A stretch of 64,000 bases of DNA. Source: Dehalococcoidia bacterium. GTDB taxonomy: Bacteria > Chloroflexota > Dehalococcoidia > CAUJGQ01. Positions within the stretch are counted from its first letter, which is position 1. Every line of letters begins with the position of its first letter. The stretch is from positions 3,419-67,418 of the forward strand of contig DATGEL010000030.1 in assembly GCA_035310145.1 (NCBI GenBank), read 5' to 3'. The translations under genes were made by a program, and so were the position numbers. Of this stretch, positions 18,291-62,284 are shown piece by piece. The notes under the pieces were generated by a model, which was not told the DNA's origin, did no database searches, and was given only the letters and a program-made list of their open reading frames with translations.

Positions 18291-19598
18291 ATGGTCTCAC
18301 CATCATCGGCCGCCATTGAAAGCAATGCCCGTCCCGGCCCACTGACCGGCGTGCGCGTGCTCGATTTGGGCGATCCGCTCACGATCTACGCCGGCAAGCT
18401 GCTCGCCGACCTCGGCGCCGATGTGATCCTGGTCGAGCCGCCCGGCGGCGTGCCCGCCCGCAACCTGCCGCCCTTCTTCCACGAGCAGTCCGGCCCCGCG
18501 ACCTCGCTCACCTTCTGGTTCTTCAACACCTCCAAACGCTCCGTCACCTGCGACCTGCATACGGCCGACGGGCGTGCCCTCTTCGCACGGCTCGTGCCCA
18601 CGGCGCAGATCGTGCTCGAAGGCGGGCCGCCGGGCGGGCTGGACGAGCTGGGCATTGGCTTCCAGCGCTTCCACGCCGAGCTGCCGGCGCTGATCTGGGC
18701 CGGCATCAGCGGCTTCGGCAGCACAGGGCCGCGCGCCGGCTGGCTGGCCGACGACCTGGTCGGCATCGCCATGTCCGGCATCCTCACGCTCTCCGGCTAC
18801 CCCGATCGGCCGCCCGTGCAACTGCCGGGCAACCAGGGCTGGTACGCCGCCGGCATCCAGGCGGCGCAGGGGCTGCTGCTAGCGCTGCGCGTGGCCGAGC
18901 AGCACGGCGCCGGCCAGTTCGTCGACGTCTCGATGCAGGAGGCGCTCTCGCTGGCGCAGGAGACGGCGATGCAGACCTGGGATATGCGCCGCGAGGTACG
19001 CAAGCGCCAGGGCGAGGCGCGGCTGATGCCCGGCGTCGGTACCTACGAGTGCGCCGACGGCCATCTCTACTCGATGGTCGGCATCCCCGGCTTCGGCGCC
19101 AACTGGCAGGTGCTCGCCGGTTGGATGGCCGAGCAAGGCATGGCCGAAGACCTGGGCAACGAGCACTGGCAGAACATCTTGAACAGCATGAATATCCGCG
19201 AACTGACGCAGCTCTGGTCCAACCCCGAGAAGTTGGCCGACCTGCAGGCGCAGTACGCGCACGTCAACGACGTGTTGGAGCGCTTCTACAAACGGTTCAG
19301 TAAGCAGTATCTCTATGAAGAAGGCCAGCGTCGCCGCCTGCTGATCGGCCCAGCCAACACCGCACGGGATCTGCTCAACGACGCGCAACTCGCGGCGCGC
19401 GGCTGGTTCCAGCAGGTCGAGCACCCGGAGCTGCAGCAGACGGTGACCTACCCTGGTCCCCCCTACCGGCTAGCCAGATCGCCCTGGCAGATCGCCCGCC
19501 GCCCGCCGCTCCCCGGCGAGCACAACATTGAGGTCTTCGGCACGCTGGGCCTCAGCCCGGCCGACCTCGCCACGCTAACCGCCGCCCACGCAATCTAA
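18291..19598 (+). CDS. CoA transferase family III (CaiB/BaiF) protein
   Basis: PLTGVRVLDLGD...AGK..ADLGADVI. ATG 18291; alternative ATG 18252 in frame, start uncertain. Confidence 0.85.
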   Translation: MVSPSSAAIESNARPGPLTGVRVLDLGDPLTIYAGKLLADLGADVILVEPPGGVPARNLPPFFHEQSGPATSLTFWFFNTSKRSVTCDLHTADGRALFARLVPTAQIVLEGGPPGGLDELGIGFQRFHAELPALIWAGISGFGSTGPRAGWLADDLVGIAMSGILTLSGYPDRPPVQLPGNQGWYAAGIQAAQGLLLALRVAEQHGAGQFVDVSMQEALSLAQETAMQTWDMRREVRKRQGEARLMPGVGTYECADGHLYSMVGIPGFGANWQVLAGWMAEQGMAEDLGNEHWQNILNSMNIRELTQLWSNPEKLADLQAQYAHVNDVLERFYKRFSKQYLYEEGQRRRLLIGPANTARDLLNDAQLAARGWFQQVEHPELQQTVTYPGPPYRLARSPWQIARRPPLPGEHNIEVFGTLGLSPADLATLTAAHAI

Positions 19599-19615
19599 AC
19601 CCATTCCGCAGCCTC

Positions 19616-19642
19616 CCCCTCTCCATGAAATGGAGAGGGGGC
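19616..19642. repeat. palindromic element A: CCCCCTCTCCAT-GAA-ATGGAGAGGGGG, member of dispersed CTCTCC/GGAGAG repeat family
   Basis: 12-bp perfect stem between two CoA-transferase genes. Followed by GGCCGGGGGGTGAGGCCACG-ATG (start of the next gene), nearly identical to the sequence before the ATG at 56255. Confidence 0.7.
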
Positions 19643-19659
19643 CGGGGGGTGAGGCCACG

Positions 19660-20919
19660 ATGACCGCTGATCTGCCCTTGCCGCTCGCCGGCATTCGCGT
19701 GGCGGACTTCTCCTGGTTCGCCGCTGGCCCCGTGGCCGGCGCGGTGCTGGCGCAGTTCGGCGCCGAAGTTATTCGCGTCGAGTCCGAGTCGCACCTCGAC
19801 GGCCTGCGCACCACCATGCCCGTGCCGCCGGGCAGCGAAGGCAGCGTCAACGTCTCCGGCTACTACAACAACTTTAACGCGAACAAGCGCTGCTTCACGC
19901 TCAACATGAGCCGGCCCGAGGCCCGCGCCGTCGCGCTGGAGCTGCTTGCAACCTGCGACGTGATGCTGGAGAACTACACGCCGCGCATCGTGGAGAAGTG
20001 GGGGCTGACCTACGCCGACGTCGCCGCGGTGCGGCCGGACATCATCTACGTCAACATCCCCATGCAGGGCAATTGGGGGCCGCACCGCGACTTTTTGGGC
20101 TTCGGCGGTGTGCTGGCCCCGGTCAGCGGCTACAGCTACCTCGCCGGCTGGCCCGACCGCGCCCCGATCGGCGTCGGCACCAACTATCCCGACTACGTGA
20201 TCAACCCCGGCCACGCCACGATCGCCATCCTCGCCGCGCTGCGCCACCGCGACCGCACGGGGGAAGGGCAGCAGATCGAGCTCTCGCAGCTCGAATCGAC
20301 GCTCAACGGCCTCGGCCCGGCGCTGATGGAGGCAGCCGCTAACGGCACCGTGCCCCAACGCCAGGGTAACCGCTGCGCCTACGCCGCGCCGCATGCCGCC
20401 TTCCGCTGCCAGGACCGGCCGGCCACGGGCACGGGCGCGCCCGAAGACCGCTGGTGCGTGATCTCGGTCTACACCGACGCCCAGTGGCAGGCGCTGAAGG
20501 CGGAGATGGGCGAGCCGGACTGGGCCGCGGAGACGCGCTTCGGCACGCTGCTCGGCCGCAAGCAGCACGAGGACGAGCTGGAGCGCTGCACCGAGGCGTG
20601 GACGCGCACGCTCAGCGCCGAGGCGGTGGCGGAGCGGCTGCAGGACCGCGGTGTGCCGGCCGGCATCGTGCAAAGCGCCGAGGACGTGCTCGACCACGAC
20701 CCGCAGCTGCAGGCGCGCGGTCTCTACGTCTATCTCGACCACCCGGAGGCGGGCCGCACCGCCTACGACGGCCCGCACTTCGTGCTGAGCGCCACGCCGG
20801 GCGTGCTGCATACGCCGGCGCCGCTGCTGGGCGAGGCGAACGACTACATCGTGAACGAGCTGCTGGGCGTGGACGGCGAGCGCGCCGCCGACCTGCTGGT
20901 CAACCAGATCGTATATTAG
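19660..20919 (+). CDS. CoA transferase family III (CaiB/BaiF) protein
   Basis: Start at MTADLPLPLAGIRVADFS, with ATG 19660 preceded by GGTGAGG. The family is conserved throughout. Confidence 0.85.
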   Translation: MTADLPLPLAGIRVADFSWFAAGPVAGAVLAQFGAEVIRVESESHLDGLRTTMPVPPGSEGSVNVSGYYNNFNANKRCFTLNMSRPEARAVALELLATCDVMLENYTPRIVEKWGLTYADVAAVRPDIIYVNIPMQGNWGPHRDFLGFGGVLAPVSGYSYLAGWPDRAPIGVGTNYPDYVINPGHATIAILAALRHRDRTGEGQQIELSQLESTLNGLGPALMEAAANGTVPQRQGNRCAYAAPHAAFRCQDRPATGTGAPEDRWCVISVYTDAQWQALKAEMGEPDWAAETRFGTLLGRKQHEDELERCTEAWTRTLSAEAVAERLQDRGVPAGIVQSAEDVLDHDPQLQARGLYVYLDHPEAGRTAYDGPHFVLSATPGVLHTPAPLLGEANDYIVNELLGVDGERAADLLVNQIVY

Positions 20920-42356: not shown

Positions 42357-42477
42357 CGATCCGGCGTCGGGCGTGCCGTACGGTCTGCGGCTCACCGGTG
42401 CGCAGCCTGAACGCGCTCAGGGCGCCCAGCCGGGCCATGCTAACCCGGCCAGCCCGCGCCCAACCTCCCCACGATCG

Positions 42478-42511
42478 CCCCCTTCTCTCCCAGTATTGGG
42501 AGAGAAGGGGG
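42478..42511. repeat. palindromic element C: CCCCCTTCTCTCCCA-GTAT-TGGGAGAGAAGGGGG
   Basis: 15-bp stem with 4-nt loop, just downstream of the peptidase M23 stop at 42537. It is followed by TCGGGGGGTTATGAGGGCC, which resembles the GGGGGTGAGGCC tails of elements A and E. Confidence 0.7.
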
Positions 42512-42536
42512 TCGGGGGGTTATGAGGGCCCGCTCT

Positions 42537-53378: not shown

Positions 53379-54557
<1,179 letters not shown>

Positions 54558-54590
54558 GGGTTGCCTCCGTCTGCGTCTCGGCCTTCTATC

Positions 54591-54770
54591 CCCCGTCCCC
54601 TTTCCCCCAATCTCTGACATCGCGCGGGGCGCGATTTGGGGTGAGGGAAAGGGGCGATCGGGCGGAGGAGGAATCGGACGATGCCGGGTTAACCGCATGA
54701 TCGTCGGAACGCCCGACCCCGGATCGCCCCTCTCCCAGGATTGGGAGAGGGGAAGGGGGTGAGGGCCGAC
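54591..54770. repeat. compound palindromic element D between divergent ACAD genes: CCCCCGTCCCCTTTCCCCCAA..., GGGGCGATCGGGC / GCCCGACCCCGGATCGCCCC inverted pair, and hairpin CCCCTCTCCCA-GGAT-TGGGAGAGGGG followed by AAGGGGGTGAGGGCC
   Basis: The hairpin is at 54727-54752 (11-bp stem). CCCCCGTCCCCT at 54591 matches element B at 42281. GGGGCGATC at 54651-54659 and GATCGCCCC at 54722-54730 are inverted copies of the motif seen in elements B and F. Confidence 0.6.
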
Positions 54771-54923
54771 TGTCCGGCGCCATCATAGCGCCAATGCGGT
54801 TGCGAGTAGCAACGGCCTGCGCTACCGTCGCAGCGAAGGCAGCGGAACTGAGCAGACGCTCAGGACGGGACCGCGCTCGGCGCGGCCCGTATCGCTTGTG
54901 CATGCGTAGACAGAGGGGGCAGC

Positions 54924-56108
<1,185 letters not shown>

Positions 56109-56215
56109 GGCCGCTTGCGCTCCTTGCCTCCGCTGTCCGAGAGACGGAGATCGACGACTGGATCGACTGAGGCTGAAAGCGGGGCGGTGAGGCTCCTCAG
56201 CTCCGCTCCGAAGCT

Positions 56216-56240
56216 CCCCTCTCCCTGGCATAGAGAGGGG
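56216..56240. repeat. palindromic element E: CCCCTCTC-CCTGGCATA-GAGAGGGG followed by CCGGGGGTGAGGCC-ATG
   Basis: 8-bp stem with 9-nt loop. The 3' tail GAGAGGGGCCGGGGGTGAGGCCATG matches element A's GAGAGGGGGCCGGGGGGTGAGGCCACGATG. The ATG is the thiolase start at 56255. Confidence 0.65.
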
Positions 56241-56254
56241 CCGGGGGTGAGGCC

Positions 56255-57400
56255 ATGCCGCATCCGCTCTACCGCGGCGCCGCGATCGCCGGCGTCGATG
56301 AGTCCGACCAGATCGGCAACGTGCCGAACAAGACCTCGCTGCAACTGCATGCCGAGGCGGCGATCAACGCGCTCGCCGACGCCGGCATCGACAGGTCCGA
56401 GGTCGACGGCATCGCCACGGCCGGCGTCTCGCCCATGCAGACGGCCGAGTATCTCGGCATCGTGCCGCGCTATTCCGACGGCACCTCGGTCGGCGGTTCT
56501 TCGTTCGTGATCCACGTCGGCCACGCGCTGGAGGCGATCGCCGGCGGCCGCGCCTCCGTCGTGCTGATCACGCACGGCGAGGGGCACCTGGGTGGCGGCC
56601 GGCGCGGCCCCGGCGGGCCAGACCCTTCCAACCTCGCCGGGCAGTACGAGGCGCCGTTCGGCGTGCTGGGGCCGCCCTACGCCTACTCGCTCGCCTGTAT
56701 GCGGCACATGGCGCTCTACGGCACGACCAAAGAGCAGCTCGCGCAGATCGCCGTGCAGACGCGCCAGTGGGCGAGTATGAACCCCAAGGCGCTGATGCGC
56801 GATCCGATCACCGTCGAGGACGTGCTCAACTCGCGCCTGATCTCCTACCCCTTCAACCTGCTCGACTGCTGCCTGGTCACGGACGCCGGCGGCGCCTGCG
56901 TTGTCGTCAGCCCCGAGCGGGCGCGCGATCTGAAGAAGAAGCCGGTCTGGGTGCTGGGCGCCGGCGAGGCGCACGACCACAGCATGATCAGCCAGATGCC
57001 CGACCTCACGCGCACGCCGGCGCAGTACTCCGGCCCGGCGGCGATGGGCATGGCCGGCGTCTCGCACGCTGAGATCGACCTGGCGATGCTCTACGACTCC
57101 TTCACCTACACCGTGCTGGTGACGCTGGAATCGCTGGGCTTCTGCAAGCCGGGCGAGGGCGGCGCCTTCGTGAGCAACGGCCGCCTGGGACCGGGCGGCG
57201 CCCTGCCCACGAACACCAACGGCGGCGGCCTGAGCTACACGCACTCGGGCATGTACGGGATGTTCCTGCTGCTGGAGGCCACACGCCAGTTGCGCGGCGA
57301 GTGCGGCCAGCGCCAGGTGGCGAACGGCAAGATCGCCCTGGTGAACGGCACCGGCGGCTCGCTCTCCTCCACGGGCACGCTGGTGCTCGCCGCCGATTAG
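56255..57400 (+). CDS. thiolase-like protein (SCP2/lipid-transfer-protein type)
   Basis: AIAGVDESDQIGNVPNKTSLQL is the N-terminal region, and NTNGGGLS a C-terminal motif. It is paralogous to 20988..22175. Confidence 0.85.
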   Translation: MPHPLYRGAAIAGVDESDQIGNVPNKTSLQLHAEAAINALADAGIDRSEVDGIATAGVSPMQTAEYLGIVPRYSDGTSVGGSSFVIHVGHALEAIAGGRASVVLITHGEGHLGGGRRGPGGPDPSNLAGQYEAPFGVLGPPYAYSLACMRHMALYGTTKEQLAQIAVQTRQWASMNPKALMRDPITVEDVLNSRLISYPFNLLDCCLVTDAGGACVVVSPERARDLKKKPVWVLGAGEAHDHSMISQMPDLTRTPAQYSGPAAMGMAGVSHAEIDLAMLYDSFTYTVLVTLESLGFCKPGEGGAFVSNGRLGPGGALPTNTNGGGLSYTHSGMYGMFLLLEATRQLRGECGQRQVANGKIALVNGTGGSLSSTGTLVLAAD

Positions 57401-62218: not shown

Positions 62219-62284
62219 GCAACGCCATGCACAAGGAACCGGAGGCCGCTATGCCGGCCTCCGGTTCCTTGTGCATGGCGTTGC
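62219..62284. terminator. 30-bp perfect inverted repeat with 6-nt loop between convergent flp and menA-like genes (bidirectional terminator-like hairpin)
   Basis: The left arm 62219-62248 is GCAACGCCATGCACAAGGAACCGGAGGCCG, the loop is CTATGC, and the right arm 62255-62284 is its exact reverse complement. No U-tract follows. Confidence 0.7.

Follow-up and report, generated by a model that had tools for sequence, protein, structure and literature searches.

A family of short interspersed repeats in Escherichia coli and other bacteria was reportedly named BoxC by Bachellier et al. in the 1990s and later described by Hoyne et al. (2000) as the potential intrastrand triplex (PIT) element. Holder et al. 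(2015, PMC4666352) describe the same element from E. coli under the name TMECO, an example being CCCTCTCCC-TGT-GGGAGAGGG-CCG-GGGTGAGGGC, and a type with a TTA linker also exists. E. coli K-12 carries 23 copies, all intergenic and without strand bias, five of which are inverted pairs; the copies are linked neither to gene function nor to distance from open reading frames (ORFs), have no promoter or terminator activity in E. coli tests and have flanks that vary markedly among strains (PMC4666352). An oligonucleotide with the E. coli sequence forms a stable triplex in vitro, as seen by circular dichroism and nuclear magnetic resonance (PMC4666352). Here we describe similar elements in a 64,000-nt stretch (hereafter the window; approximately 70% GC) of a Dehalococcoidia metagenome-assembled genome (MAG), two of which, copies A and E, run directly into the start codons of a CoA-transferase gene and a thiolase-like gene.

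We consider it probable (at roughly 85%) that A and E are two copies, belonging to one sub-family, of the BoxC/PIT/TMECO repeat, and that any Shine-Dalgarno (SD) role is a side effect of where they landed. The element is 45–52 nt long and consists of a C/T-rich arm, a loop of 4–9 nt, a complementary G/A arm, a linker of 3 nt and a third arm rich in G. A perfect hairpin is formed by the first two of these arms, and the third repeats the G/A arm in mirror image, except that a T stands in place of one A. It is this mirror arm which the first-pass annotation of the window had picked out as an SD-like GGTGAGG.

Copy A (19605–19656, plus strand) has 10 of 10 canonical triads and no hairpin mismatches. 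It is made up of a 5′ flank TCCGCAGC (19605–19612), CT, the C-rich arm CCCCCTCTCC (19615–19624), the loop ATGAAAT, the G/A arm GGAGAGGGGG (19632–19641), the linker CCG, the mirror arm GGGGGTGAGG (19645–19654) and CC, followed by ACG and the ATG at 19660. This copy, whose RNA hairpin is calculated at −22.9 kcal/mol, takes up the 61 nt which separate two co-directional CoA-transferase genes, the downstream one being a family III gene (CoA_transf_3; 19660–20919, plus strand). NCBI assigns an identical CoA-transferase to a Dehalococcoidia MAG. The N-termini of orthologues align from the ATG at 19660; an in-frame ATG at 19630, which lies inside the hairpin loop of copy A, was therefore rejected as the start of this gene. 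Copy E (56207–56254, plus strand; 8 of 8 triads) ends 0 nt before the ATG at 56255 and consists of the flank TCCGAAGC (56207–56214), T, the C-rich arm CCCCTCTC (56216–56223), the loop CCTGGCATA, the G/A arm GAGAGGGG (56233–56240), the linker CCG, the mirror arm GGGGTGAGG (56244–56252) and CC. Its RNA hairpin is weaker (−13.6 kcal/mol) and it lies within a 146-nt gap which leads from an acyl-CoA dehydrogenase gene to a thiolase-like gene of the SCP-x type (Thiolase_C_1; 56255–57400, plus strand). The ATG of the latter is conserved in orthologues which have no element, and identical thiolase loci are present on metagenome contigs.

Both 19633–19662 and 56233–56257 carry GAGAGGGG(G)CCGGGGG(G)TGAGGCC leading into the ATG, as the first-pass annotation had reported for about 25 nt. 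We found the likeness to be larger than this: it spans the entire hairpin and an 8-nt 5′ flank, TCCG(C/A)AGC (19605–19612 and 56207–56214), so that the shared unit is approximately 50 nt, and the genes which follow it, CoA_transf_3 and Thiolase_C_1, are indeed unrelated. The 22-nt module of copy E recurs at A and D with ≤ 3 mismatches (0 expected from 100 dinucleotide shuffles). The idea that the likeness arose by chance, from the G-rich surroundings of SD sites in a genome of 70% GC, can therefore be regarded as refuted. What could be said for it is that the bare decamer GGGGGTGAGG (≤ 1 mismatch) was found 9 times in the window vs 6.9 expected, which is no excess; since the decamer itself is not over-represented, the signal resides in the whole element, with hairpin and 5′ flank included, and not in a G-rich context, and bona fide genes of the window use a plain GGAGG.

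We searched the window with a finder requiring a pyrimidine arm, a purine arm and an antiparallel mirror arm (class II, G*G-C and A/T*A-T triads; at least 8 triads and ≤ 1 mismatch). This returned exactly A, C, D and E (8–14 triads, 0–1 mismatch), with the long-loop copy F as a fifth, and only one hit in total from 20 shuffled windows. C and D had already been proposed as diverged versions, which the finder confirmed, and F had been overlooked. The arms co-vary across the variants which we tabulated: GGAGAGGGGG/GGGGGTGAGG, GGGAGAGGGG/GGGGTGAGGG, GGGAGAAGGAGA/AGAGGATGAGGG (12 of 12 triads), GGAGAAGGG/GGTTGAGG and copy C (13 of 14), with the lengths of the G-runs and the positions of the A residues in the purine arm mirrored in the third arm. 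Most of the copies have one core in common. Judged by sequence, the relation between the arms is that of a mirror and not of a direct repeat, as the triplex model predicts. Single-stranded DNA of the element could fold into a purine-motif triplex, and the RNA would form only the hairpin.

The copies share with BoxC/PIT/TMECO the three-arm class II purine motif (core arms CCCTCTCC/GGAGAGGG/GGGTGAGG) and an intergenic, dispersed occurrence with inverted doublets, hypervariable flanks and no link to a class of genes. The CCG linker of A and E is that of E. coli type B TMECO, and all three arms of this type are contained verbatim in copy D, which has an AAG linker (copy C has TCG). They differ from the described family in their host, a 70% GC Dehalococcoidia MAG rather than a proteobacterium or cyanobacterium, in their arms of 8–14 nt with longer G/C runs, in their lineage-specific flanks and in the two copies which abut start codons.

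Our census of copies in the source DNA covered the window, where the five copies are all intergenic and occupy four different contexts in co-directional, convergent and divergent gaps. Copy C (42472–42531, plus strand; 13 of 14 triads) is an extended variant which reads CCCCCTTCTCTCCC-AGTATT-GGGAGAGAAGGGGG-TCG-GGGGGTTATGAGGG; its third arm co-varies with its G/A arm (TT opposite AA) and its RNA hairpin reaches −31.2 kcal/mol. Because its flanking genes, a peptidase gene and a regulator gene, converge, copy C has no start codon to serve. Copy D (54722–54768, plus strand; 10 of 11 triads) reads GATCG-CCCCTCTCCC-AGGATT-GGGAGAGGGG-AAG-GGGGTGAGGG-CCG and is situated between two divergent acyl-CoA dehydrogenase genes, approximately 155 nt from the start of the plus-strand gene. 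Copy F (approximately 54586–54660, minus strand), in the same divergent gap, was found when the loop was relaxed and has the variant arms CCCCTTTCCCTC/GGGGGAAAGGGG/GGGGATAGAAGG; relative to the uninterrupted orthologous copy in a related metagenome locus, L124 (approximately 1175–1230), its loop contains a 27-nt insertion. This insertion itself holds a small hairpin, ATCGCGC-GGG-GCGCGAT. F and D together form an inverted doublet with tails outward. The flanks divide the copies into those with GATCG...GCCG (C, D and F) and those with TCCGMAGC...GGCC (A and E).

Two further features of the window should be mentioned. The sequence GCGGGGCGGTGAGGC at 56178–56192, approximately 25 nt upstream of copy E, resembles the element's linker and third arm and could be what is left of an older copy. 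The other feature is a perfect inverted repeat of 30 nt whose loop has 6 nt (GCAACGCCATGCACAAGGAACCGGAGGCCG and its reverse complement; 62219–62284); it directly follows a stop codon and is unrelated in sequence to the triplex element.

We scanned 185,579 species genomes with the pattern GAGAGGGG-N2-4-GGGGGTGAGG, which matched at least 120 stretches. Among the matches listed, to which the following description applies, nearly all of the 157 copies have the C-rich arm just upstream. The matches include isolates (Hymenobacter spp., Pseudomonas, Xanthomonas, Oscillatoria and Flavobacterium) and MAGs of Chloroflexota (including Dehalococcoidia), Planctomycetota, Bacteroidota, Acidobacteriota, Gemmatimonadota, Armatimonadota, Patescibacteria and others; Cyanobacteria and Proteobacteria are also represented. 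Copies from Chloroflexota in two loci (L023 and L077) have details of the loop and flank in common with copies C and D. The foreign copies lie on both strands, doublets included, next to genes for ABC transporters, dehydrogenases, response regulators and others, and no metabolic family recurs. ABC transporter ATPases, solute-binding proteins and dehydrogenases were considered as linked neighbours and dismissed as ordinary abundant families. Copies of the element are scattered through intergenic DNA, point either way and have unrelated genes as neighbours. With five copies in the window and at least 120 genome stretches elsewhere, the proposal of the first-pass annotation that the shared sequence is a transplanted unit and not a remnant of gene duplication holds. 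The core is nearly identical in isolates and MAGs of about a dozen phyla, AT-rich genomes included, a range which extends far beyond the proteobacterial and cyanobacterial one described so far and which calls for an explanation other than local drift. We also observed head-to-tail tandem arrays, with a period of approximately 42 nt in an Anaerolineales genome (L111), of 36 and 72 nt in a Polyangiales genome (L015) and with a 78-nt unit in a Bacteroidales genome (L012).

To follow the element between relatives we took orthologues of the thiolase from metagenomes and compared 80 thiolase loci, most of which lack the element. L124, whose thiolase is 94% identical, stays collinear with the window as far as the upstream stop codon and becomes so once more 2 nt before the ATG; the spacer at the site of copy E is an unrelated sequence which carries cGGAGccaccaccATG and no element. 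Coding DNA is 87–90% identical between the two while this spacer is wholly replaced. Orthologues with 77–84% identity have GGAGG-type sites 6–8 nt upstream of the same start and no element, and one with 67% identity has the element inverted, 45 nt upstream, in addition to an SD of its own. For the CoA-transferase, an 89% identical orthologue has the tail of the element approximately 40 nt upstream plus its own GGAG, so that the junction of copy A differs in this relative, and a 72% identical orthologue has GGGAGG and no element. Since orthologues in which no element abuts the start use the same initiation codon, both ATGs are ancestral, and the suggestion that the module supplies SD and start codon together stands, at the level of a probability, for the SD and falls for the start codon.

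The orthologue of copy D in L124 has a stem change from CTCTCC/GGAGAG to CTCGCC/GGCGAG (T-A to G-C) with its third arm unchanged. The loop of the same copy is exactly inverted, from aggatt to aatcct, as though the centre of the hairpin had flipped or a G·A-mismatch variant which is common in E. coli and other phyla had segregated. These comparisons show that the element is gained, lost, inverted and rearranged between close relatives; its stem is maintained and turnover of the region is rapid, as has been reported for E. coli too. It was also observed that the contig of the 89% relative (L216) ends in or beside the element upstream of the CoA-transferase gene, and short-read assemblies appear to break at triplex-motif repeats.

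At A and E the element would have come to lie against the downstream start codon, displacing an ancestral GGAG(G) site, and its tail probably now serves as the ribosome-binding site (RBS) as a by-product. The duplex between the tail and the anti-SD was calculated at −10.7 kcal/mol for A and −9.9 kcal/mol for E vs −11.4 kcal/mol for the SD of one orthologue, with a spacing of 5–10 nt. Since its pairing with the anti-SD CCUCC is about as good as that of the orthologues' site, the tail is most likely the RBS at present. Ordinary genes of the window use a plain GGAGG, for example the minus-strand acyl-CoA dehydrogenase gene which starts at 54557. Elsewhere starts are not enriched past the tail: an ORF of at least 100 aa starts 0–12 nt past it in 8 of 117 foreign copies (among the matches listed) vs 6 on the opposite side, which served as control.

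Several observations weigh against our interpretation of these sequences as BoxC-type triplex repeats with an incidental role in translation. The strict TMECO consensus, CCCTCNCCC-N3-6-GGGNGAGGG-N3-GGGNGAGGG, is matched nowhere in the window, the arms of these copies being 1–5 nt longer or shifted in register, and when arm and linker length are relaxed it matches copy D only; we therefore file the copies as BoxC-like (GC-rich triplex motif) and not as strict TMECO. Footprinting with dimethyl sulfate (DMS) detected no TMECO triplex in vivo (PMC4666352). As triplex formation has been seen with E. coli oligonucleotides in vitro only, the fold is to be taken as a potential and not as a demonstrated state. 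The compensatory change in the stem of copy D, with the third arm unaltered, favours the hairpin as the constrained part. The TGAGG core of copy E is 2 nt from the ATG, which leaves only the G-run correctly spaced, and we infer SD function at A and E from complementarity and from the loss of the ancestral site. Lastly, 2 of the 5 copies in the window abut a start codon vs about 7% in other genomes, so the element may have a lineage-specific use in translation.

Neither the regulatory explanations which the first-pass annotation had raised (riboswitch, operator and promoter) nor a terminator receives support. A translational operator or riboswitch-like RNA, in which a hairpin in the leader hides or exposes GGTGAGG, would resemble the SD-sequestering RNA thermometers and riboswitch platforms in having a hairpin beside a purine-rich RBS sequence just upstream of the start. 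It gains something from the position of A and E between co-directional genes, where the element is very probably transcribed as part of two operons, from stable hairpins (−13.6 to −22.9 kcal/mol) and from the weak pairing of part of the G-run of A with upstream sequence in the best fold. When the regions were folded, however, the stem was formed by CCCCTCTCC and GGAGAGGGG and the tail lay outside it, and folding of the 80-nt regions around A and E was not stronger than that of shuffles (z = −1.95 and +0.32). Rfam gave no hit at the gathering score in the whole window and only noise at E ≤ 10 in 54600–56400, so that no riboswitch family is matched, and there is neither an aptamer nor a conserved leader. 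The element occurs in both orientations, in convergent and divergent gaps and beside unrelated genes across phyla, start codons are not enriched past its tail, and close orthologues manage without it. The data on orientation and context have already largely refuted this explanation, which we regard as highly improbable. We think equally little of a transcription factor site co-regulating genes of fatty-acid or acyl-CoA catabolism. Four of the five copies (A, D, F and E) do adjoin CoA-transferase, acyl-CoA dehydrogenase or thiolase genes, but such neighbours are expected by position alone because genes of this kind dominate the window. Copy C lies beside peptidase and regulator genes, the foreign copies have no metabolic neighbours in common and the thiolase orthologues mostly do without the element.

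A mobile promoter/RBS cassette, selected for the delivery of expression signals, seems very unlikely, if slightly less so. In its favour are the loss of the ancestral SD at A and E and the near-equal pairing of the tail with the anti-SD, and the RBS half of the idea survives as a probable by-product at these two sites. The promoter half does not, as a promoter scan found no sigma-70-like site in or near the copies and PIT/TMECO has no promoter activity in E. coli (PMC4666352); the family also shows neither an orientation bias nor an enrichment of start codons past the tail. Somewhat better placed, and still unlikely, is a role at the level of the mRNA as in REP, where an intercistronic hairpin would block 3′ exonucleases or set the ratios of genes in an operon. 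The stable RNA hairpins of A and E between co-directional genes are what it would predict, and the compensatory change in the orthologue of copy D shows that the stem is maintained. It leaves unexplained the conserved mirror arm and its co-variation, the copies at divergent promoters and the inverted doublets, and the E. coli elements have no terminator activity (PMC4666352). An intrinsic terminator was also considered and rejected: no terminator-like sites were found in 19300–19900 or 54400–56500, and the hairpin is followed by a G-run and not by a T/U run. A G-quadruplex motif (four runs of at least 3 G, loops of 1–7 nt) occurs in C and D and is absent from A, E and F, and is therefore not a shared property of the element.

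As an interspersed repeat of BoxC type, the element invites comparison with the REP and REPIN sequences of E. coli and Pseudomonas, which are likewise short, GC-rich, palindromic and intergenic, occur in many copies and are found as singlets and inverted doublets. It differs from REP in sequence, in having a mirror third arm and in a core which is nearly identical across phyla, whereas REP sequences are species-specific. In the REPIN-RAYT system a single-copy nuclease-type gene lies between copies, and we found a parallel to this in other genomes, where the gene encodes a Vsr-like PD-(D/E)XK endonuclease (DUF559) and not an IS200-like Y1 transposase. Among the 120 listed loci DUF559 was the only recurrent nuclease gene beside copies, although no search was aimed at RAYT. 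With regard to a MITE, which would have terminal inverted repeats and a target-site duplication and would derive from an IS element, no direct repeats flanking A or E were visible, and there was no IS-type transposase in the neighbourhoods of the element.

We clustered the ORFs within 3 kb of the element in these 120 loci and located DUF559 genes by tblastn. DUF559 was the only recurrent neighbour family which is not a housekeeping one. Eight DUF559 genes of approximately 120 aa were found (L004, L014, L026, L039, L046, L105, L119 and L121), from Planctomycetota, Betaproteobacteria, Bacteroidota and Melainabacteria, and each of the eight has a copy at most 80 nt away. Six are enclosed by an inverted pair whose tails point outward, the other two by a pair whose tails point inward. 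No DUF559 gene was present in 430 kb of control loci selected by thiolase, nor within the 64-kb window. A profile search returned more than 7,700 DUF559 proteins at E < 1e−10. In the reverse direction, we picked eight DUF559 genes solely for their long contigs (loci within L205–L215), of which six had clear copies no farther than 60 nt from their ends, one had a degenerate copy and one had none. In one of these loci (L206, 401–793) the DUF559 cassette, with copies on its flanks, separates trpB from trpA, and other DUF559 cassettes lie between equally conserved housekeeping genes, as would be expected of selfish insertion.

The DUF559 gene of E. coli K-12 is ycjD (L204; NC_000913, 1351204–1351760), which has TMECO #9 168 nt downstream. 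The stop codon of ycjD is overlain by a degenerate copy, and a duplicated fragment of the gene's 3′ end lies between this degenerate copy and TMECO #9. The cassette was found in the fabI/sapF interval of 3,375 of 5,426 complete E. coli genomes. In O157:H7, the one ycjD-lacking genome which we examined, the site is occupied by the eefRABC operon, as it is in assemblies which carry eef (PMC12817139). Comparison of the fabI-ycjD junction with O157:H7 did not yield clean element boundaries. The gene is known from phylogroups A, B1 and C (PMC12817139), and it has been reported in ST69 (phylogroup D) and ST182 (phylogroup E). TMECO counts are 18–30 in most A, B1 and C strains (UMNK88, which is not assigned to a phylogroup here, has 13), 12–15 in D, 10–11 in O157:H7, 6–7 in F and 1–2 in B2 (PMC4666352, supplement). 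The correlation between the presence of ycjD and the TMECO count is phylogenetically confounded. The counted strains are grouped here by their presumed phylogroups.

The DUF559 profile matches PDB entry 3HRL and, more weakly, the homing endonuclease I-Bth0305I (3R3P, E = 1.4e−5), and the E..D..H..D residues are invariant in the DUF559 proteins which are encoded between inverted copies. These genes resemble those of the Vsr-like "EDxHD" homing endonucleases (I-Bth0305I, PMC3239194) in being small, selfish-looking ORFs between housekeeping genes. Unlike homing endonuclease genes they lie outside introns and inteins, and an association with a dispersed repeat is not a feature of the known ones. 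We also retrieved more distant DUF559 genes from IMG/VR contigs with a tight DUF559 alignment (L221–L233; 68–73% GC); a query with a single DUF559 protein had retrieved no viral relatives. These are flanked by different inverted repeats which contain hairpins, for example CTCCGCCCCCTAYGGGGGCGGACAG with its reverse complement downstream, and each DUF559 subfamily may carry its own flanking repeat. Our literature search found no paper linking DUF559 or ycjD with BoxC or TMECO. By analogy with REPIN and RAYT, BoxC or triplex-motif repeats could be the cognate DNA of stand-alone DUF559 (EDxHD-type) endonucleases, a proposal to which we give even odds. A gene of approximately 120 aa between two inverted copies would then be the autonomous unit, and solo copies and doublets without a gene, such as those of the window (A–F), would be non-autonomous relatives or targets.

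The repeat family described here is already known and functionally unexplained, and it is the host lineage which is new. The proper annotation of these sequences is as BoxC-like repeats and not as riboswitches, operators or SD motifs, and the repeats would account for the breaks seen here in assemblies and in intergenic spacers. The interest of the A/E pair itself is modest: at these sites a selfish repeat would have replaced the ribosome-binding site of a gene. The parts worth following are the spread across phyla and the association with DUF559, whose tight physical link to the repeat offers BoxC a testable candidate for its missing trans-acting partner. If this is true, a repeat which has been an orphan for 30 years would gain a partner enzyme, a very large orphan protein family would gain a function, and the two together would constitute a new selfish or domesticated element which crosses phyla.

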